A DNA stretch of 64,000 nt from a phage: sequence record OZ335964.1; one strand, written 5' to 3'. The notes under the pieces were generated by a model. It saw only the letters and a list, made by a program, of their open reading frames with translations, made no database searches and was not told the origin of the DNA. Positions 747 to 56,179 of this stretch are shown one piece after another; the first letter of the stretch is position 1; every line of letters begins with the position of its first letter. A program made the translations under genes and the position numbers.

Positions 747-1310
747 TCACTGTATATTTTTACTTCTTTGCTTTCCTATCCAGATCCGTCTAACTGTTTC
801 CGCATTAACATCATATATTTTTGCGATCTTTGCCGCAGATCCGGTTCCTTTTAGAGTTTTGATTTCTTCAATCTGATCTTTGGTTAATTTAGCCCAATGG
901 TGTGCATCACCATAACACGAACTCAGACCGTGTGTCAATGCATGAATCTGATTTTCTGATTGTGTAACCCATTCAAGATTATATAGGTCATGGTTTCTTT
1001 TGTTTCCATCGATATGATTAACAAACGGCAAATTGTTTACGTTTGGTATAAACGCTTCTGCTTTTGCTCTGTGTATGTATATCGATAGAGATTTAACCCT
1101 AGACCCTGAACTAGTTTTATTACCGTAAGGATCTCTGATTCTTGCTACGGCGTATCCACCGCTTCTTCCGGCTACAGATTCTCTATAAATCTTTCCTGTT
1201 TTCTTGTTTCTAATGCGTCCATATGAGCTAACCTCGTAGCCTGGCATTTCGACGCCCATATAAACAAGGTCTTTCCATTCTTCTGGATGTTCGTCACAAT
1301 ACCGTTTCAT
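747..1310 (-). CDS. free-standing HNH homing endonuclease (HNH_3-type with C-terminal HTH)
   Basis: Motif FVNHIDGNKRNHDLYNLEWVTQSENQIHA plus C-terminal helix-turn-helix AKIAKIYDVNAETVRRIWIGK; sits between primase and the 61.x-region ORFs. Confidence 0.8.
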   Translation of the reverse strand: MKRYCDEHPEEWKDLVYMGVEMPGYEVSSYGRIRNKKTGKIYRESVAGRSGGYAVARIRDPYGNKTSSGSRVKSLSIYIHRAKAEAFIPNVNNLPFVNHIDGNKRNHDLYNLEWVTQSENQIHALTHGLSSCYGDAHHWAKLTKDQIEEIKTLKGTGSAAKIAKIYDVNAETVRRIWIGKQRSKNIQ

Positions 1311-4722: not shown

Positions 4723-5793
4723 TTATGCTAACATATCTTCGATTTCTTTGTCAACTGCTTCGTCGCTGATCACTTGCCCCAGCTTATAATGATCGTTGAT
4801 TGCTTCGTTAAACTTATCGTTTGTCAGAAGTGGTTTCCAGAACTCAATGCTATTGGTTTCTTTAGCACGGAACTTGCGTTCTTCGGTTTCCATCTCTCCG
4901 GTCTCCGTATTCAGGATTGAACGAGAATACCAGCCGTTTGACGGTTTCACTACCCAACCTAACTCTACAGCCAACTCCAGCAAACCGGAATAAGGATCGA
5001 TGCCACCGCTAAACGTTACGCTAATCGGGAACTTAGATTTTTCTTTAACGGTTCGTGATTTTTCCGCATTCAGGATAAAATCATAGCCAGTAATTTCGGT
5101 TCCTTCTTTCTGCTGACGACGACCAATAATGAAAACTTCATTGGCTGAATACATCGCGCCCGTACCGCCGGACATAACGGTCTTACTAAACATTTCTTGC
5201 GTTTCGTAAGTGTGGTTAATAGCGATGCACGGGATATCATTCATAGTCAGATATGGCGTCACCATACGGAACAAGCCTTTAAGTGCTTTAGCTCGCGTCA
5301 TATCCTGTGCGGATTTCTCATTAATCGCGTCTTCAACTTCTTTTTTACTTGCTAAGTTACCGATTGAGTCAATAAAGATGATCACTTTATCTTCACGGGT
5401 AATTTGCTCAAGCTGGTTCATGATTTCAAATTTAAGTTCTTCGATGTTCTTGATTGGAACATGCACCACGCGATCAGGATCTACACCCATAGATTCAAGA
5501 TAAGCGGATGTAATACCGAACTCAGAATCAAAGAACAAACACGCCGCATCAGGATTCTGTTTCATGTATGCACTAACGCAAGTTAATCCCATGTTTGATT
5601 TAAAGTGCTTAGACGGACCAGCAAAGAAAATCAGACCAGATTGAAAGCCTTTTTTAAGATCACCGGAAAACGCAATATTCAGCATCGGGATCTTAGTGCG
5701 AGTATTTGTTTTTTCGTTAAAGAAGCTGGATTTAGACAGTACCGCAGTAGTTTTCAGGGTAGAGTTCTTTTTCAGTTTTTCCAGTACAGACAT
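4723..5793 (-). CDS. uvsX: recombinase UvsX (RecA-like)
   Basis: N-terminus ...FFNEKTNTRTKIPMLNIAFSGDLKKGFQSGLIFFAGPSKHFKSN... closely parallels recalled T4 UvsX; P-loop GPSKHFKS. Confidence 0.9.
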   Translation of the reverse strand: MSVLEKLKKNSTLKTTAVLSKSSFFNEKTNTRTKIPMLNIAFSGDLKKGFQSGLIFFAGPSKHFKSNMGLTCVSAYMKQNPDAACLFFDSEFGITSAYLESMGVDPDRVVHVPIKNIEELKFEIMNQLEQITREDKVIIFIDSIGNLASKKEVEDAINEKSAQDMTRAKALKGLFRMVTPYLTMNDIPCIAINHTYETQEMFSKTVMSGGTGAMYSANEVFIIGRRQQKEGTEITGYDFILNAEKSRTVKEKSKFPISVTFSGGIDPYSGLLELAVELGWVVKPSNGWYSRSILNTETGEMETEERKFRAKETNSIEFWKPLLTNDKFNEAINDHYKLGQVISDEAVDKEIEDMLA

Positions 5794-5804
5794 TATTAAT
5801 ACCT

Positions 5805-6032
5805 CTATTCAGTTAATCCGTAATACTTTAATTGCTTCATTGTTATTCGATCTTTGTAGTGCTCTTGAATTAACTTTTTCATCGCATCAACATCGATCGT
5901 CACAAATACTTCGTTGCTGTGATTTCCGTGAACTTTCTTGAAATGCTCTATGCCTTCCTCACGTTCACGTTTAATCTTTTCAATGTCTCTCATAGTATAT
6001 TTCTCACGTTGGCGGGTATCGTCACCCAACAC
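5805..6032 (-). CDS. hypothetical protein (75 aa)
   Basis: Only ORF between uvsX and polymerase; T4 carries beta-gt/42/imm here. Confidence 0.35.
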   Translation of the reverse strand: MLGDDTRQREKYTMRDIEKIKREREEGIEHFKKVHGNHSNEVFVTIDVDAMKKLIQEHYKDRITMKQLKYYGLTE

Positions 6033-6054
6033 CCGCCATTATACACACTTTATC

Positions 6055-7239
6055 TTAAATGTCAAACAGGTCAGTCAGAGAAGCAACTTTTTCATATTGC
6101 AGCTTTGCAGCCGTGGTAATGTTCTCCAGTGGTTTGACGAAAGTCTTATTAAACAACAAAGGCCAGTCTAACCACTTTAACACCTCGCTTTCAATTTCTG
6201 GAGGAATACGAGTACCGGACAACCAACCAAAACAGATTTCTCCAAACGGATTTCGATCTTTAAGCGGTACGATCATAACCTTCTCGCCTTCACGAATCGG
6301 ATCTAGTCCGAATTTTCGAGCATTACGATTATAACACAATACACTCTTAACCGCATACGGACAACCCTTAATCGGATACCCGTTTGAATCGCTGTATTTC
6401 TGTAGGTTGTTTGCAGATGATACCGCAGCAACCTCAAGATAGTCAAGTTTTCTAAACTCTTGCTCAAAAATACCGTAGTATTCCTGTAGCGATTCTTCCC
6501 CTTCCTGCAACATACGGCGAATACATTCTTTCAGTGATTTCTGACATGCTTTAGGGGTGGAGCTACGTTGCGTTTCCAAGCCCATGATTTTTAGCTTAGG
6601 TTCAGCAAAGCGCGTTCCTTCCATATCCCAAACATTAAGAGCATAACGCTTTTTGCCAGTCCAGAATCCACCGATACCCGCAGATTTCAACGGAGGACCA
6701 GCAATTGCCTCACGGTCCATAAACATCAAGTGCTCATAGTTATTCATGTACTCGCATAACTCGCGATATCCCTTGTCGATAATAGGTTCCATCCGATGTT
6801 TACCGAAATTATCAAGGAAGTCAACAAGTTTTTCGGTATCGTCGAAACGGTCTTCCCCGCCAACCTTATCAACAACATTGTTAACCAGCACATAAACGGA
6901 GTCAGTATCACAATAACGAACATATGCAAAATCAGTTGTTCCGCAAAGCTCGTTTAAGTATTCGTTAATCTTACGCTCAATCCATCTAATAGCGACCTGT
7001 CCAAATAGCGTAATCGCACTAGCATTACGCAGATCGTATAGGCGGAAACGTGGATTCCCAAGCGCGCCATAAAGGCTATTAATCAATACCTTACGAGAAA
7101 GCTGGTTTGTATTACATAAAACCGATTCGTTTTGACAATAGGTTAATAACTGCTTTAACTCATCTACAGACATTGACTCGAATTGTTCTAGCTGTTCGTC
7201 GGTGAAGTCTGAACGAACATCAATATTTTTAATATCCAA
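6055..7239 (-). CDS. 43: DNA polymerase gp43, C-terminal fragment (polymerase domain; '43B')
   Basis: 394 aa; starts just before KVLINSLYG (motif A), contains YCDTDS (motif C) and WTGKKRYA; collinear with the C-terminal ~390 aa of recalled T4 gp43. Probable TTG start preceded by GGGGGTGA SD. Confidence 0.9.
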   Translation of the reverse strand: MDIKNIDVRSDFTDEQLEQFESMSVDELKQLLTYCQNESVLCNTNQLSRKVLINSLYGALGNPRFRLYDLRNASAITLFGQVAIRWIERKINEYLNELCGTTDFAYVRYCDTDSVYVLVNNVVDKVGGEDRFDDTEKLVDFLDNFGKHRMEPIIDKGYRELCEYMNNYEHLMFMDREAIAGPPLKSAGIGGFWTGKKRYALNVWDMEGTRFAEPKLKIMGLETQRSSTPKACQKSLKECIRRMLQEGEESLQEYYGIFEQEFRKLDYLEVAAVSSANNLQKYSDSNGYPIKGCPYAVKSVLCYNRNARKFGLDPIREGEKVMIVPLKDRNPFGEICFGWLSGTRIPPEIESEVLKWLDWPLLFNKTFVKPLENITTAAKLQYEKVASLTDLFDI

Positions 7240-7259
7240 TATTTCACCCCCATCAACGA

Positions 7260-7817
7260 TTAATGTATAATTGCATATTCGCCATGATATTGTACTATAT
7301 GCCTATTATACGCGTCAATAGCTTCTTCTTCCGAATCAAAGTATCCTATATGATGCGTCTCGTGGTTTACTGTTATTCGAACACGCCATTTATCATAACC
7401 TCTCACCTTTGAGATTCCTTTGTATTTTGAAGTCCTTCCCTCAATAGAAATTGATCCATTGCTATTAATCTGATTTTCGTTATGAGAAGCCGCCCTTAAA
7501 TTTTCAATTCTATTATTGGTTCGAACTCTATCAACATGATCTATTTGAGTTTTTCCATTAATAGGTCTTTCCTTGCTAGGACAATGACCATGAAACATAT
7601 GGTATATCACACGATGAATTTTTCTAGCTTTGCCATCTATCCAAACTTTGCAATATCCTTGCTTGTCAGGAAACCTCCCGATCACCTGACCTTTTTGTGC
7701 TTGACTGCTGGTAGATATCTTTCTAATCAATATTCCATCGTCATATTGAAATAATCTGTGATAGAGTTCATAAAGTCTCTTATCTTCGTCATTGTAATGA
7801 ATAACTTGATACATCAC
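7260..7817 (-). CDS. HNH-AP2 homing endonuclease inserted within gene 43
   Basis: HNH motif QIDHVDRVRTNNRIENLRAASHNENQ followed by AP2-like DNA-binding module YKGISKVRGYDKWRVRITVNHETHHIGYFDSEEEAIDAYN; start overlaps stop of 43 N-fragment. Confidence 0.8.
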   Translation of the reverse strand: MMYQVIHYNDEDKRLYELYHRLFQYDDGILIRKISTSSQAQKGQVIGRFPDKQGYCKVWIDGKARKIHRVIYHMFHGHCPSKERPINGKTQIDHVDRVRTNNRIENLRAASHNENQINSNGSISIEGRTSKYKGISKVRGYDKWRVRITVNHETHHIGYFDSEEEAIDAYNRHIVQYHGEYAIIH

Positions 7818-9331
7818 AACTCACCTCGCTTCTTCAATATTTCTTTTATTCGTTCAGCATTACGGTCACACGCCAACATCATGTTTTTGTACTGCTTACG
7901 CTGATCGAATACTTTCTTGATCTCAATCGGTATAATTCCATGAATATCTTTACGATACATCCAACCGTTAGGAGAACACGAGTATTCATCGCTAGGTCGT
8001 GGTGCTGTCTTATTAACATAATCATCAATTGGCGCGGCTTCAAACGATCCAGCGATTGTTTCCGGCGAAATGTTAACCTGTCGAATAATAGATGGGTACA
8101 GACTTGTTAAGTCAAAGCTCATCATCCAACGGTAAGCATTAGGTACTGGCTCTTTTACGAATGCGCCCGGATAAGTCTGCTTAGGCTGTATCTTATTTTC
8201 CGGTACTACTTTACCCTCAGCTTTCAGAGATCCGAAGATAATAGCATCCCATACTTTCATCGGGTTATAAACATGGTTAAATTTAATCTTTGCATAGAAA
8301 CATAGACTATACACAAGATCGATAAATCCACGCTTTTTATCAATCGCCAGCACACGATCAACGTCGCCGATGTTATAATCGATGTAAAGTTGATGGTTAT
8401 CATCACGCAATTTCTTTAACGGACCATCATAATCAACCTTACCGATTCCTGTCTCATATTCAGCAACATAATCTAATGCATATGTTGGTTGAGTCGTAAA
8501 GCTAAATTTCTTGTATAAGTCAATGTAGTCAAGGCTTTCGATCCCCATGATCGTAAATGCTTCACGCTCGTTGCCAAAATCATCCTGTGAGATTCGGGAT
8601 TTAATCTTACCGCACGGGCTTAGACGGTTAGCGGTTCTACTTCCGAACTTATTACTGATACGTTTAATGATATATGGAATATCGAATGTTTCTGTGTTCC
8701 AGCCAGTGAAACCAACGGGTCGGTTTTCCTCAAAGAATCGGATGTATTCTAACAGCAATTCATCTTCTGTATCATAGACGTTATAAACAACGCGCTCTAC
8801 AATATCAGGTCGAAGAATAGACTTTCTTGCTTCCCAGATTTCACCGTTTTTTCCTTTCAAATCAAACACAAAGAAACGATCATGTACGGAATCATAATGC
8901 GTAATTGCATCGATAGGATATTTCGCTTCTTCTGGTTTAGGAAATTCCGGTGCAGTGACCTCGATATCAACCCATGCTACACGGATTTTATTTCGGTCAT
9001 ATCGAATCTCGCCTTTATATGTATCGGACAGATAGGAGATGATAAAATCATCCATCCCTAGCGCCTCTTGCCCCATTTCCCCCATCTTTTTACGCCATTT
9101 GTTGGCCTCGTTCATAGATGGGAATTTTTTAGCAATGCAAGGCTTGCCATAGATATCTTTATAATTTGTAACCATACCAGGCGCGGCATGATGAAATAAA
9201 GTTGGCGTATATTCAACGTAACGCTCTTGTTCTTGTCCAGCATCATCAATATAACGCTCGTAGATCTTATCACCTACTCGCTCACATGACAGAAAATACA
9301 TAATATAAACTCCTTCACTTACGAAAGACAC
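7814..9331 (-). CDS. 43: DNA polymerase gp43, N-terminal fragment (3'-5' exonuclease/N-terminal domains; '43A')
   Basis: 505 aa; collinear with N-terminal ~500 aa of recalled T4 gp43 (ERYIDD...REVEY.P..F, FTGWN.E.FDIPYI, LDYIDLYKKFSFT.QP.Y.LDY, MSFDLTSLYPSIIRQVNISPETIAG). Confidence 0.9.
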   Translation of the reverse strand: MSFVSEGVYIMYFLSCERVGDKIYERYIDDAGQEQERYVEYTPTLFHHAAPGMVTNYKDIYGKPCIAKKFPSMNEANKWRKKMGEMGQEALGMDDFIISYLSDTYKGEIRYDRNKIRVAWVDIEVTAPEFPKPEEAKYPIDAITHYDSVHDRFFVFDLKGKNGEIWEARKSILRPDIVERVVYNVYDTEDELLLEYIRFFEENRPVGFTGWNTETFDIPYIIKRISNKFGSRTANRLSPCGKIKSRISQDDFGNEREAFTIMGIESLDYIDLYKKFSFTTQPTYALDYVAEYETGIGKVDYDGPLKKLRDDNHQLYIDYNIGDVDRVLAIDKKRGFIDLVYSLCFYAKIKFNHVYNPMKVWDAIIFGSLKAEGKVVPENKIQPKQTYPGAFVKEPVPNAYRWMMSFDLTSLYPSIIRQVNISPETIAGSFEAAPIDDYVNKTAPRPSDEYSCSPNGWMYRKDIHGIIPIEIKKVFDQRKQYKNMMLACDRNAERIKEILKKRGEL

Positions 9332-9383
9332 TCATTATAGGGGAATCGACTTAGTTTGTCAATACCCCTATCCCATCAGTATC

Positions 9384-9746
9384 TTATCGCCCGATCTGAT
9401 ATTTCTCGATCAGCGTCCACTCTTCTTTCTGTTTAAAAGACAGTACACGGAAATTATTAACTTCTGTAGTTTCAAAATCACTATCAATCAGGGTGCATAG
9501 ATTCCACTGCGCAAGAAGTTTTGCAATATTATTACGGCGCAATTCATCTTCCCACGTCATCTTAACACTACGACCATCTAATTTCAACAACTCCTTGAAA
9601 TGAACGATGTAATAGCGCCCCTTCTTCTGGAGAATATGACAAGACTGATACAGTGTCTTGTCTCGATTGTTGGCAATGCCGCAGCGGGTTAAAGTCTCCT
9701 TAATTTTAAGGAAGTTTTCAGGATTAATCAAATTAATTTCAATCAT
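9384..9746 (-). CDS. regA: translational repressor RegA
   Basis: 120 aa; MIEINLINPENFLKIKETLTRCGIANNRDKTLYQSCHILQKKGRYYIVHFKE... nearly collinear with recalled T4 RegA. Confidence 0.9.
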   Translation of the reverse strand: MIEINLINPENFLKIKETLTRCGIANNRDKTLYQSCHILQKKGRYYIVHFKELLKLDGRSVKMTWEDELRRNNIAKLLAQWNLCTLIDSDFETTEVNNFRVLSFKQKEEWTLIEKYQIGR

Positions 9747-9747
9747 T

Positions 9748-10326
9748 TTACCACCTTTCTATAATCTTTTTAAGTCGTTTCCTTTCTGTCTGATTCTTAG
9801 TAACACCCGCCAAAAGTTCATCGGTCGCATACGGTTTAATGTGCTTCAATAACTTGTCCATATATCCCTTTTCATTAGCCAAATCGAGATAAAATCGGGC
9901 GTCATCCATATTTACACAATATGCTTTCGCCACTGCCATTAAAACCAATTTTTGGTCTAATTCTTCTGTTAGTTTAGCCCATTTACCGTATCGTTTCCCC
10001 TTAGAAATACTCTGTAAGAGATAATCAAAATGCATTTGATCTGGGAGGCCATGACCGATTAAATTCATCACATACGCGCTATATAGGCAATCTGCGTGCT
10101 GGGAAAGAGCGGTATTAATCCATCTCTGATTGTATGCAGAATTATTCCCAACATTAACGCGCTGTTTATCTAAGGTGATATGATCCATCAGAGCAAATAA
10201 TGCATTGTCGGTTTTCTCGGTGAATGTGTCCGCTAGTTCAGACACTTTTTCCCAATCACGAGAGCGCCATGCAATTTCATGCTCGTTTAATTGTGTATCA
10301 TCTTCACCGAAAAATTGACCTAACAT
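9748..10326 (-). CDS. 62: clamp loader small subunit gp62
   Basis: 192 aa; ...QLNEHEIAW.S.DW..., ...YVMNLIGHGL..., ...KGKRYGKWAKL... match recalled T4 gp62; between regA and 44. Confidence 0.85.
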   Translation of the reverse strand: MLGQFFGEDDTQLNEHEIAWRSRDWEKVSELADTFTEKTDNALFALMDHITLDKQRVNVGNNSAYNQRWINTALSQHADCLYSAYVMNLIGHGLPDQMHFDYLLQSISKGKRYGKWAKLTEELDQKLVLMAVAKAYCVNMDDARFYLDLANEKGYMDKLLKHIKPYATDELLAGVTKNQTERKRLKKIIERW

Positions 10327-37855: not shown

Positions 37856-39994
37856 TTAAGGATTTCGGCCAGGGTAATGCTTAAATCGACCGTAACCAGT
37901 TTCAATGCTCATATCTCGTTGACGCACAATCGCCCAATAACCGTTGCAGGAATCTTGAAGATATAGATCCTTACCTTTTAGGAACTCATTAAAAATAGTG
38001 ATCTGCCAATCATAATAGACCGCATCAGCAAGACTACCCATCCAACCGTGCGGATCTTCCATCAGTTCGACAAGTTCATCAATTACCCAATATGGACAAG
38101 GGCTAAATTTACCCTTACTAAAATCGCTGAACATAGTAACGATCTTGACTTCCGGTCGAGGCTGATCGGGAATATCTGGACGTTTGTTAACTACGACTTG
38201 CACATATTTTGTGTAGCCTACAATTTCACCTTCATCTAAGTTAGTGTTATTGTTTTTGTCGGCAAATGCAACAAATTTGTAAACACCAGAATCATTTAAT
38301 GTTGCATTAGCTTTACGATATACCGGAACACTGGAATCTGCAATAGGTAATTTAATACCACTTTTACTAAATTCATAGGTCGGCACATAGTTAGATGGCG
38401 GTTTAATCATGGTTGCTTCCAGCACCAACGGATCACCCTCAGTAATTTGCACCGGATGCGGACCGTCAAATTCCATATTAGGAATTACTTCAACTTTATA
38501 GGTTGCACGTCCTGCAATATCATATCCGGTATGCGCACTATGAGGATCTCGGCTAGGACTATCGCGATATTCATGCGACCAGATACCATTATGTTCTTTA
38601 TCCGCCGCATCAGTGATCTTATATTCTTTCGTTTCAATCGGCAATTCTGTTACAAGAACATCGTTTTTCAAAATTGCTAACGAACGAGTTTGAGTCGGAT
38701 CATTACTTGCTGGAGGTTCTGGATCAACAATTTTAATAACAATAGGTTCCCCAACCTCAATACCGCTATAATCATGCTCGACGTCATAGATATCTAACAT
38801 ACGGCGATCATAAAATAACGGGCGAGAAGTTGGAGTTCTCTGCGGATCATCATCACGCGCAGGAGCTACCAACAATTGCAGGGCTACACTATTATCATAT
38901 TGCAATTTCTCAAGACTAATACGGTCATAACCAGGATCACCATATTTCTTGCTTTGTAATTGCGTACCACCTAACATCCACGTAAAGTAGACATTATTTG
39001 TTAATAAACCATAATGTCGGTTCCATGAATTATCAACAGGGGAAACTGGCATATCAATACTAACAGAAGACCCAGAAGGATAACGAAATTCAATAGCAGA
39101 AAAATCTCGGCTAAAAAATTCGTTTTCCTTGACGTTAACGCGGAATCGATGGCGCTGACCTTCCAGATACGATTCACTACTACCAGGACCATTTTCAACC
39201 TTATAGGAACGAATACAAGCGACATAATCACCTGCATCTGCTTCGGTAGCATGTTTCGTCACATATAAAGTTTTATTCTTTGATTCATAAACCAAAGTAC
39301 CATCGCCACGTTCCAGACGATAACGAACTATGGTATGTTCAGCGTCATTTGGGGCATCGTCTTCTACAGTATAATAGGCAGGTGCATATTTTTGTACATT
39401 GAATACAGCTAAATTTTCTCGAATTGTTGCTGTAAACGGATATACAAATTTAACATCACCTGTTTCGTCGCTTAATTCCATTCGATAAAGACCGGAAAAT
39501 TCAGGCCATGCGAATTTTGCAATTTTAAATTCACGATGGTCCAATCCCAAATCACCATCTACGGAATCAACTAGACCATTATTATAATACAAGTCAACAG
39601 AGATATTAGCAGGAATATTACTACGAAAAACAATTTTCGCTTTAAGTTCATCACCAATATTAAATGATGTCGGAGGATATACATGTTCAACATATGGATT
39701 ATCAAATAACTTAAATGTAAAGTTTTCCGTGCCAATATCGATAGAATCACCACTAAATGATGTGTCGCCTAGCGCATAACCTCGAACGTTTACAGACCAT
39801 CCGGTAACATCGTCTTCTTTAACGGAATCCAATGTAAATGTCGGAGAGGCACTTGTTGCTATAATCTGGTCATTTTTCTTCCAGACATAACCTTTTTTCG
39901 GTTTTGTTGAATCAGGGCTTTCATCAACAATACAGCAGCTAAAATCGTGCGGCATCCAAATCATATTATTGACCGTGGTGTTTACTACTGCCAT
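37856..39994 (-). CDS. large beta-rich protein with Ig-like motifs (712 aa)
   Basis: At least two Ig-domain-type D-x-G-x-Y motifs (EADAGDYVACIRSY; LNDSGVYKFVAF); rich in N/D/Y/T; no catalytic motif recognised. Confidence 0.5.
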   Translation of the reverse strand: MAVVNTTVNNMIWMPHDFSCCIVDESPDSTKPKKGYVWKKNDQIIATSASPTFTLDSVKEDDVTGWSVNVRGYALGDTSFSGDSIDIGTENFTFKLFDNPYVEHVYPPTSFNIGDELKAKIVFRSNIPANISVDLYYNNGLVDSVDGDLGLDHREFKIAKFAWPEFSGLYRMELSDETGDVKFVYPFTATIRENLAVFNVQKYAPAYYTVEDDAPNDAEHTIVRYRLERGDGTLVYESKNKTLYVTKHATEADAGDYVACIRSYKVENGPGSSESYLEGQRHRFRVNVKENEFFSRDFSAIEFRYPSGSSVSIDMPVSPVDNSWNRHYGLLTNNVYFTWMLGGTQLQSKKYGDPGYDRISLEKLQYDNSVALQLLVAPARDDDPQRTPTSRPLFYDRRMLDIYDVEHDYSGIEVGEPIVIKIVDPEPPASNDPTQTRSLAILKNDVLVTELPIETKEYKITDAADKEHNGIWSHEYRDSPSRDPHSAHTGYDIAGRATYKVEVIPNMEFDGPHPVQITEGDPLVLEATMIKPPSNYVPTYEFSKSGIKLPIADSSVPVYRKANATLNDSGVYKFVAFADKNNNTNLDEGEIVGYTKYVQVVVNKRPDIPDQPRPEVKIVTMFSDFSKGKFSPCPYWVIDELVELMEDPHGWMGSLADAVYYDWQITIFNEFLKGKDLYLQDSCNGYWAIVRQRDMSIETGYGRFKHYPGRNP

Positions 39995-55036: not shown

Positions 55037-56179
55037 TTAACTATTGATCATATCAATGACGTTTTGTAGCTCTGATATGGATAGCGTTTCTGTATATCCA
55101 TCGGGCATATCTTCTTTACTAACATAGAAACCTTTATACTTTTTCTTTATTGCACATTCCATAGAAAGAGCATCATCACCGTTATCGTATTTTTTATAAA
55201 ATGTCAACTCATGACGAAATATAGATTTTGAAGATTGGTTTTGTATTCTTTTTATTAATCTGTTGTTGGTTATACCAAATTTTATAGCAACCGCAACATC
55301 TTCTTTGTATAAAGTTTGTACATAAATGTATGCAGGTTTATTCCTCTTAAATCCATGATTGCTACACATAGGGCAACCGCTATTTTTTGATACGTAGTCT
55401 CCTAAGTTTGGCGTAAATTCATGTCCGCTACTACAACGCATTACCAATTTTGTTTTTAGCATTCCTCTATACTCACCGCCAACAAAATCAACAAATGTAT
55501 CACCTTTATCAATCGCCTTATCTGTTATTTCCTTTACTACTTGCTCAGTTGACTTCTTGTTTTTACCTGAACATAGTTTACATCTAGATCCATTAACTAA
55601 AAACGAGTGACCAGATGCAGTATATTCATGTCCATTAGGACATTTAACTAAGATATTTCTTTCATAAAAATCTTTATAATCAGACACATAGCCAATAACT
55701 TCGTGGTCTTTTTGGGCATTCCTCATCTCTGTTAGCAACTCTTCGCTATTCCAGCGTTTACCCTTAACGCAGAGACAACCATGACCTTGATAAAGATATA
55801 TAAATTTCTTAGTAAAGTTTTTGTTACAGTCAGGGCAGTGCATTAGTAATTCTGTCATTTGACCTGTATACCCTTTAGGAATATCGATCAATGTGTATTT
55901 TCCGCATATTGTCTTTAATGCATCATCTATTCTTTCTTTGGTCCAGCGTAAGCGACCAGTGCATTCATGACATTTTACACCCAGTCTAAGAGTATCTAAA
56001 CTAAATATAGTTGACGTATGTCCTTTATCACATTTTAACTTAAATCTAGTATCCTTTGCGTTGGTGTATTCTCCAACTAGACCATACCATTCATAACCAC
56101 ATGGGATATGTTCTTTTACCTTCTCTAGATATACACCGAACGGTCTAGGAACTGAATTAGGTTTTCTTTCTTTAGTCAT
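55037..56179 (-). CDS. zinc-ribbon-repeat protein with C-terminal T5orf172 (GIY-YIG-like) domain; putative free-standing endonuclease
   Basis: Four ~55-aa repeats each with G-H...C-x2-C (e.g. KCDKGHTS...KCHEC; KCPNGHEY...CKLC; RCSSGHEF...CPMC) then ...PAYIYVQTLYKEDVAVAIKFGITNNRLIKRIQ...; inserted between genes 3 and 2. Confidence 0.45.
   Translation of the reverse strand: MTKERKPNSVPRPFGVYLEKVKEHIPCGYEWYGLVGEYTNAKDTRFKLKCDKGHTSTIFSLDTLRLGVKCHECTGRLRWTKERIDDALKTICGKYTLIDIPKGYTGQMTELLMHCPDCNKNFTKKFIYLYQGHGCLCVKGKRWNSEELLTEMRNAQKDHEVIGYVSDYKDFYERNILVKCPNGHEYTASGHSFLVNGSRCKLCSGKNKKSTEQVVKEITDKAIDKGDTFVDFVGGEYRGMLKTKLVMRCSSGHEFTPNLGDYVSKNSGCPMCSNHGFKRNKPAYIYVQTLYKEDVAVAIKFGITNNRLIKRIQNQSSKSIFRHELTFYKKYDNGDDALSMECAIKKKYKGFYVSKEDMPDGYTETLSISELQNVIDMINS

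Follow-up and report, generated by a model that had tools for sequence, protein, structure and literature searches.

Gene 43 of T4-like phages codes for the family-B replicative DNA polymerase gp43 and is one of their essential core genes (PMC2993671), which raises the question of how a phage can carry it in two pieces. This is the situation in the window, by which we mean the whole 64,000-nucleotide stretch of phage DNA in record OZ335964.1. The window is a segment of a Krischvirus genome, that is, of an RB49-like coliphage, and in it gene 43 is divided into two genes, 43A and 43B, with a gene of the HNH homing-endonuclease family between them, at a place where RB49 has a single open reading frame (ORF) of 892 amino acids. 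Is the product a polymerase of two chains, a single chain restored by splicing or a broken gene, and how did the split reach this genome? We consider it very probable that gp43 is here a two-chain enzyme split at the tip of its fingers domain (the fingertip), that an HNH-AP2 endonuclease gene lies between the two halves, and that the split allele was imported as a tract of about 1 kilobase (kb). The products gp43A (495 amino acids) and gp43B (394 amino acids) would associate non-covalently to form the enzyme, and neither RNA nor protein splicing would be needed. The features concerned are the following.

7814..9301, minus strand: 43A, 495 amino acids, most likely ATG start, product beginning MYFLSCERVG and ending in ERIKEILKKRGEL, followed by TGA
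7260..7814, minus strand: free-standing HNH homing-endonuclease gene, 184 amino acids, ATG start
7240..7259, minus strand: intercistronic spacer of 20 nucleotides (nt), from the HNH stop (TAA, 7262..7260) to the 43B start
6055..7239, minus strand: 43B, 394 amino acids, putative TTG start
9334..9362, minus strand: consensus sigma-70 early promoter upstream of 43A, TTGACA-17-TATAAT, score 12/12
6985..8045, minus strand: putative imported tract of about 1.06 kb, placed by BLAST borders and diagnostic sites
7138..7851, minus strand: core of the putative imported tract, 714 nt in place of 146 nt of RB49 fingertip sequence

An earlier interpretation of this locus, the sequence-only reading, had placed three ORFs here on the minus strand, and both ORF and Pfam analysis bear them out: the N-terminal piece contains DNA_pol_B_exo1 and the beginning of DNA_pol_B, and the C-terminal piece the remainder of DNA_pol_B. 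The genes 43A, HNH and 43B use three different frames, and the stop codon of 43A overlaps ATG 7814 of the HNH gene in the sequence TGATG, as that reading had noticed. Two of its boundaries have to be moved. It gave the N-terminal piece 505 amino acids and took the sum of 899 to equal the 898 of T4 gp43; the start of 43A is most likely ATG 9301, the same as the annotated start of RB49 gp43, and a start at GTG 9331 would give 10 added residues without an RB49 counterpart. The piece is then 495 amino acids long and the total 889 against 892 in RB49, so the earlier numerical match was coincidental, although the claim that nothing is missing still holds. Similarly, the endonuclease ORF does sit at the break, but it is 184 amino acids long from ATG 7814 and not 185 (7260..7817); relatives have TAATG at the 43A/HNH junction, and the GTG upstream of ATG 7814 is therefore not conserved. 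Around the locus, RB49 and dozens of its relatives are 95-96% identical to the window over 5900..9500, the insert excepted, and the replication genes follow one another on the minus strand in the order regA (9384..9746), polymerase region, a small ORF and uvsX (4723..5793).

The position of the break was found by alignment to gp43 of RB69, with the motif residues taken from gap-free stretches of the alignments to its solved structures. Residues 2-490 of 43A correspond to RB69 residues 4-504 and residues 5-393 of 43B to RB69 residues 515-902, while on an 898-residue chain (the length of T4 gp43) the pieces match 4-502 and 518-897. The two together cover the RB69 and T4 proteins from end to end, and no residue is lost or added. 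In RB69 numbering the break falls at about residues 505-514, where the fingers domain (which we take to be residues 469-572) has its tip, between the two finger helices; motif A is left on the 43A side, and motifs B and C are on the 43B side. The N-terminal piece had been described as the exonuclease part, a description that is too narrow: besides the N-terminal domain and the 3'-5' exonuclease, 43A holds the initial portion of the palm together with the first finger helix, including motif A (DLTSLYPS, D397 = RB69 D411) and the triphosphate-binding residues R468 and K472 (RB69 R482 and K486), and it is 98% identical to RB49 gp43 over residues 1-483. The gene 43B supplies the second finger helix, the rest of the palm and the thumb. 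Its KVLINSLYG, which the sequence-only reading had called motif A, is motif B (K50, N54 and Y57 = RB69 K560, N564 and Y567), and its YCDTDS was correctly named motif C (D111 and D113 = RB69 D621 and D623). All catalytic motifs are thus intact across the two genes and, since each piece gives one of the antiparallel finger helices and a part of the palm, the active site would be a composite one.

Two kinds of comparison sequences were used throughout. The phage set consists of 64 matching records, nearly all Krischvirus, and the fingertip is unsplit in 64/64 of them. The split itself recurs in metagenomic contigs, among them L005 (Logan, SRR23924984) and L006 (European Nucleotide Archive), whose assemblies are independent; L006, together with contigs L007 and L008, samples a divergent Krischvirus-like lineage. 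L005 has an identical layout of 495 + 184 + 395 amino acids with intact frames, at 93.8% nucleotide identity to the window, and L006 has the same junctions as the window at 78-86% identity, again with intact ORFs.

Could the interruption be an endonuclease-bearing group I intron, or an intein, that is spliced to restore a single-chain polymerase? Group I introns are known in gene 43 of close relatives (L006, L007, JSE) and they often carry endonuclease ORFs, but we regard this explanation as exceedingly improbable for the fingertip. Rfam gave no match in 6900..8100 at E<=1 and no RNA family match in 5500..10000 at the gathering threshold, with Intron_gpI in gene 43 of L006 (395-613, 64.8 bits) and of L007 (1-196, 50.8 bits) as positive controls; the JSE intron scores 42.9 bits, under the gathering score of 50. 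Moreover, the introns of the relatives sit elsewhere, inside motif A (DLTSL|YPS) at about residue 402, and just 20 nt of the 574-nt interruption are non-coding, the rest being the endonuclease ORF. An intein is excluded because the three ORFs are in different frames with stop codons between them, no Hint or intein domain was found in them by Pfam, and there are no surplus residues at the fragment ends that could form a split intein. A stop codon closes 43A, and 43B is preceded by a Shine-Dalgarno sequence of its own and opens with a start codon, both of them conserved. We give just as little credence to an assembly or sequencing artefact, or to a dead pseudogene, even though the position is uninterrupted in every one of the matching phage records. 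An artefact is excluded by the layout that two independent assemblies, L005 and L006, share with the window, and a pseudogene would be at odds with the complete catalytic motifs, with the essential role of gp43 in T4-like phages (PMC2993671) and with the omega values, computed by the Nei-Gojobori method, of 0.02-0.08 overall on both halves in the split-bearing genomes. For 43A, omega was 0.036 between the window and L005 and 0.03 between the window and RB49; for 43B the corresponding values were 0.053 and 0.07, in an overall range of 0.05-0.08; and for the HNH gene, among its three alleles, omega was 0.04-0.05. Purifying selection is thus strong on each of the three genes. Frames, stops, alignments and Rfam results thus agree with the earlier claim of a two-gene polymerase with an HNH gene between its halves, as in some T4-related phages, and with its statement that this is neither an intein nor an intron; the sequence data support two separate polymerase genes and a free-standing HNH gene.

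The motif A intron was recorded wherever it occurred in the comparison set: at 395-613 in L006, 1-196 in L007 and 2184-2606 in L002 (JSE), and also in L003 and L004. The intron of MIZ4 and JK32 holds a 274-amino-acid HNH/NUMOD3 ORF; that of JSE holds no intact one. The annotation of JSE, MIZ4 and JK32 with two polymerase coding sequences (CDS), of 402 and 468 amino acids, is due to this intron. L006, L007 and L008 have the motif A intron plus the fingertip split, and the window does not have the motif A intron.

How would the three genes be expressed? RB49 annotates an early promoter at the place equivalent to 9334..9362, and between 43A and 43B the minus strand showed no terminator-like site, so that one early transcript is likely and 43A, the HNH gene and 43B are probably co-transcribed from that promoter. 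The HNH gene would be translationally coupled to 43A through the TGATG overlap. For 43B, a strong Shine-Dalgarno sequence, GGGGGTGA, lies at 7251..7244, partly in the 20-nt spacer, and precedes TTG 7239; the corresponding sequence in the relatives is GGAGGTGA or GAGGATGTGA, and a Shine-Dalgarno sequence with a start codon is kept in all three genomes (the window, L005 and L006). We infer that 43B is initiated at TTG 7239, as the sequence-only reading proposed, although its remark that there is no in-frame ATG does not hold, the first one being codon 23. A start at that codon (M23) was rejected because the relatives keep the Shine-Dalgarno sequence and an ATG at the very start of 43B; it would also cut part of the second finger helix. 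The 43B start reads ATG-TTA-GAT in L005 and L006 and ATA-TTG-GAT in the window, the ATG of the relatives lying one codon upstream, and this comparison indicates that the ancestral ATG was lost and the adjacent codon turned into a TTG start. The codons concerned are at 7237..7242 (minus strand) in the window, at 6573..6578 in L005 and at about 1519 in L006; the gain of the TTG may compensate for the loss of the ATG, or the change may serve to reduce translation of 43B. RNA folding at the 43B ribosome-binding site gave no structure beyond chance (z = 0.35), and thus no evidence for a regulatory hairpin there. A perfect TTGACA-16-TATAAT promoter at 6038..6065 (minus strand) overlaps the last codons of 43B and corresponds to the early promoter that the RB49 annotation assigns to the small ORF downstream.

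The protein encoded in the gap is an HNH endonuclease by several measures. Its 184 residues match Pfam HNH_3 over residues 65-115 (49.6 bits against a cutoff of 24.8, 3e-13) and PHROG 99, 'HNH endonuclease' (8e-48), and D92, H93, N101, N114 and N117 are invariant among 22 homologues, with D92 and H93 within the HNH_3 domain. The 'AP2' part of the label given to it earlier found no backing in the Pfam sequence search, where AP2 did not match even at E<=10; in a homologue of 46% identity Pfam AP2 reaches 29.3 bits, with a gathering cutoff of 33.3. An AlphaFold2 model made from the 22 homologues does back it (mean predicted local distance difference test score, pLDDT, 89): its C-terminal 56-58 residues superpose on the plant AP2/ERF proteins WRI1, TEM1 and AtERF1 at 1.4-1.7 A with a probability of 1.00, the C-terminal domain has a template modelling (TM) score of 0.72 to 1gcc, and over its full length the model matches I-HmuI, an HNH homing endonuclease, so that the label 'HNH-AP2' is justified on the predicted fold. 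The strong purifying selection on the gene suggests that the endonuclease is probably active. The gene is absent from 64/64 matching phage records, and the closest copy in the phage collection is 43.5% identical to the protein. No other carriers of the endonuclease were found in IMG/VR viral contigs and no prophage copies in complete E. coli genomes, the exact junction pattern was not found in Joint Genome Institute (JGI) metagenome contigs, and no isolated phage with the cassette was recovered with the DNA, the endonuclease protein or the 43B head peptide as query, the best match of the last in phage isolates being 58.6%, to the unsplit RB49 type. The centre of the HNH gene (window 7400..7760) is 68-85% identical to that of L005 and the flanking polymerase DNA 93-100%, with a synonymous divergence (dS) of 1.28 in the HNH gene (omega 0.05) and 0.18 in the flanking polymerase; either the HNH alleles greatly predate the DNA around them, or they have been exchanged on their own.

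In order to locate the borders of the foreign sequence we used 173 diagnostic sites at which RB49, JSE, MIZ4 and JK32 differ from contigs L006, L007 and L008 of the divergent lineage. Around the core, flanks of about 190 nt and 150 nt of gene 43 sequence carry variants of the L006/L007 lineage. In the flanks inside 6985..8045, 35/51 sites are donor-type and 16/51 RB49-type, whereas outside, RB49-type variants account for 107/110 classified sites and donor-type variants for 3/110 (Fisher p = 1.3e-19 for the enrichment). The tract borders of L005 are almost identical to those of the window. By its variants, then, the window is RB49-type outside about 6985..8045, and inside it matches the divergent and already split Krischvirus-like lineage, all sampled contigs of which (L006, L007, L008) are split at the fingertip. 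A short mosaic tract around an endonuclease gene that is absent from the relatives has the form of the footprint that would be expected of intronless homing with co-conversion.

We therefore propose, on the strength of these sequence comparisons, that the phage's own gene would not have been split here and that its genome would have received an already split allele from a divergent Krischvirus-like lineage, as a tract in which co-converted flanks enclose the foreign fingertip and the endonuclease gene. It would most likely have arrived by the repair of a double-strand break initiated by the endonuclease (intronless homing) in a mixed infection. The window's endonuclease would presumably cleave an intact gene 43 allele, and the foreign fingertip sequence probably shields the carrier from its own endonuclease. 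As to the protein, the heterodimer 43A:43B would be expected to assemble and be active by analogy with gp43A and gp43B of phage 25 and with a split Pfu polymerase, and the purifying selection on both halves points the same way. The earlier notion that the gene was created by homing-endonuclease insertion fits in so far as the allele was imported with an endonuclease gene; it was already split at that time, and the original split may or may not have been the work of an endonuclease.

Several points weigh against this account as a whole. The 43B of the window does not have the ATG start of its relatives, which makes its expression level uncertain. Ordinary recombination, without any action of the endonuclease, could also yield a mosaic tract, and with 16/51 of the flank sites RB49-type, the actual donor is not among the contigs sampled. 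The AP2 domain of the HNH protein, finally, escaped the Pfam sequence search.

The ancient origin of the split is a separate matter, for which a scenario other than endonuclease insertion deserves some weight, although we hold it to be less probable than not: a short intercistronic spacer would have split the fingertip first, in the manner of phages 44RR and IME13, endonucleases would have colonised the harmless gap later, and ordinary homologous recombination would have brought the tract into the window's genome. In Stenotrophomonas phage IME13, 43A and 43B are 53 nt apart with no endonuclease gene between them. The gap of L007 and L008 is occupied by a GIY-YIG (seg-like) gene of 222 amino acids in place of the HNH gene, and their 43A tail is homologous at the DNA level to that of the window (ERVKEILKKRRGE versus ERIKEILKKRGEL); the GIY-YIG gene in these contigs and the bare spacer of IME13 show the split state to be older than any occupant of the gap. 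The far greater divergence of the HNH alleles than of the flanking polymerase between the window and L005 (dS 1.28 against 0.18) also speaks for this scenario, and a review raises the spacer-first scenario for phage 25 (PMC2988022). The same source makes the point for phages 25 and 44RR that it is a question whether the endonuclease made the first cut in gp43. However, the classic footprint of homing, presence/absence polymorphism together with a short tract of co-conversion around the endonuclease gene, is seen here, and this gene, under strong purifying selection, is probably active. The spacer-first scenario concerns the ancient origin only and is compatible with the acquisition of the split allele by the window's genome as we propose it. 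With the gap occupied by an HNH-AP2 gene in the window, L005 and L006, by a GIY-YIG gene in L007 and L008, and by none in IME13 and 44RR, one may go further and imagine the split fingertip as a portable cassette whose gap is a landing pad, where unrelated endonucleases swap and carry the split into intact clades, an idea that we offer as a speculative and rather unlikely one.

Split polymerases of this kind are known from other T4-related phages. According to two papers (PMC3061061, PMC2988022) that summarise work by Petrov et al. (2006, J Mol Biol 361:46; 2010, J Mol Biol 395:457), gp43 is bicistronic and split at the fingertip in Aeromonas phages (44RR, 31, 25, 65) and in an Acinetobacter phage (133), with gaps of 2 base pairs to 3 kb, and gp43A and gp43B of phage 25 co-purify and are active. 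An engineered Pfu polymerase split at the finger tip kept full activity (PMC3061061), and by analogy with it a two-chain polymerase might have changed nucleotide selectivity or fidelity, in which case the split would be more than neutral. A protein search with 43B found many pieces of about 390 amino acids from Aeromonas, Acinetobacter and Stenotrophomonas phages, including matches annotated as 'gp43B' (phage 65) and 'split DNA polymerase' (Henu6). The window resembles the bicistronic phages in having 43A and 43B with the same finger-tip break (44RR, 31, 25, 65, 133), a 43B of about 390 amino acids and no splicing, and at the sequence level it shows full coverage of gp43 and an independent 43B start; their gap is empty or holds a homing-endonuclease gene, and that of the window belongs to the second kind. 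It differs in that it is from an RB49-like coliphage, in the clade of which the fingertip is otherwise unsplit among the matching records, in the occupant of the gap (HNH-AP2 here, a seg-type GIY-YIG gene in phage 25, an untranslated spacer in 44RR), and in the co-converted flanks that make the recent import of its split allele visible.

Essential genes divided in two by a free-standing HNH-family gene also have precedents outside gene 43. In T4 the topoisomerase genes 39 and 60 are split by mobA, and the nrdA gene of phage Aeh1, split by mobE, was reportedly described by Friedrich in 2007. The window is like both in its arrangement, and as the products of Aeh1 nrdA and T4 39/60 reassemble into an active enzyme with a composite active site, so would the two halves of gp43 here. 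Aeh1 infects Aeromonas, its mobE-split nrdA being treated by Crona (2010, PMC3045599); the enzyme is a different one, and its assembly needs tails created by the insertion, whereas the pieces in the window have no extra tails and abut within about 10 residues in RB69 numbering.

The endonuclease itself belongs to a familiar type, HNH-AP2 homing endonucleases having reportedly been described by Magnani in 2004. Like those of other T4-related phages, that of the window has HNH_3 followed by an AP2-type domain in some 160-190 amino acids, is free-standing, and is variably present in close relatives; unlike the other copies, to which it is at most 43.5% identical, it lies inside a core gene and not between genes. 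Such endonucleases occur in RB49 (ORF040c) and in multiple copies in JSE, RB43 and RB16 (PMC2993671, Table 5). ORF040c, which adjoins gene 47 in RB49, is missing from the window through a 565-nt deletion relative to RB49 at about 17204, and RB49 and the window therefore carry HNH-AP2 genes at different loci. The group I intron of JSE offers another comparison, as it too is a mobile interruption of gene 43 in the same genus that is annotated as two 'DNA polymerase' CDS; it is, however, a ribozyme, spliced at the RNA level, in motif A at about residue 402, and the window does not have it.

The phenomenon and its parts are thus known, and what is new is the split in the RB49 clade, its HNH-AP2 occupant and the visible import tract. 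A known oddity, a replicative polymerase of two chains that meet at the finger tip, would thereby be extended to the RB49 coliphage group, and the window would catch the event near its origin, with about 1 kb of foreign sequence and clear co-conversion borders in an otherwise RB49-type gene. Intact and split alleles in near-identical genomes that grow on E. coli make a convenient natural pair, suited to tests of the endonuclease-driven spread of split alleles and of one-chain against two-chain polymerases. Annotators should call the two 'DNA polymerase' CDS 43A and 43B and should not treat them as a frameshift or pseudogene.

Other insertions relative to RB49 were seen in the window. At 747..1310 (minus strand) a 187-amino-acid ORF with HNH_3 and NUMOD4, in a 575-nt insertion, adjoins the primase gene 61 and is probably another free-standing homing-endonuclease gene. 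Near gene 2, an insertion of 1205 nt contains a 380-amino-acid ORF (55037..56179, minus strand) that matches CapR, DUF4379 (a treble-clef zinc finger) and, weakly, T5orf172; it may be another mobile nuclease-like gene. Finally, a 712-amino-acid ORF at 37856..39994 (minus strand), with a weak Ig-like match as its sole hit, occupies 2151 nt where RB49 has 214 nt.

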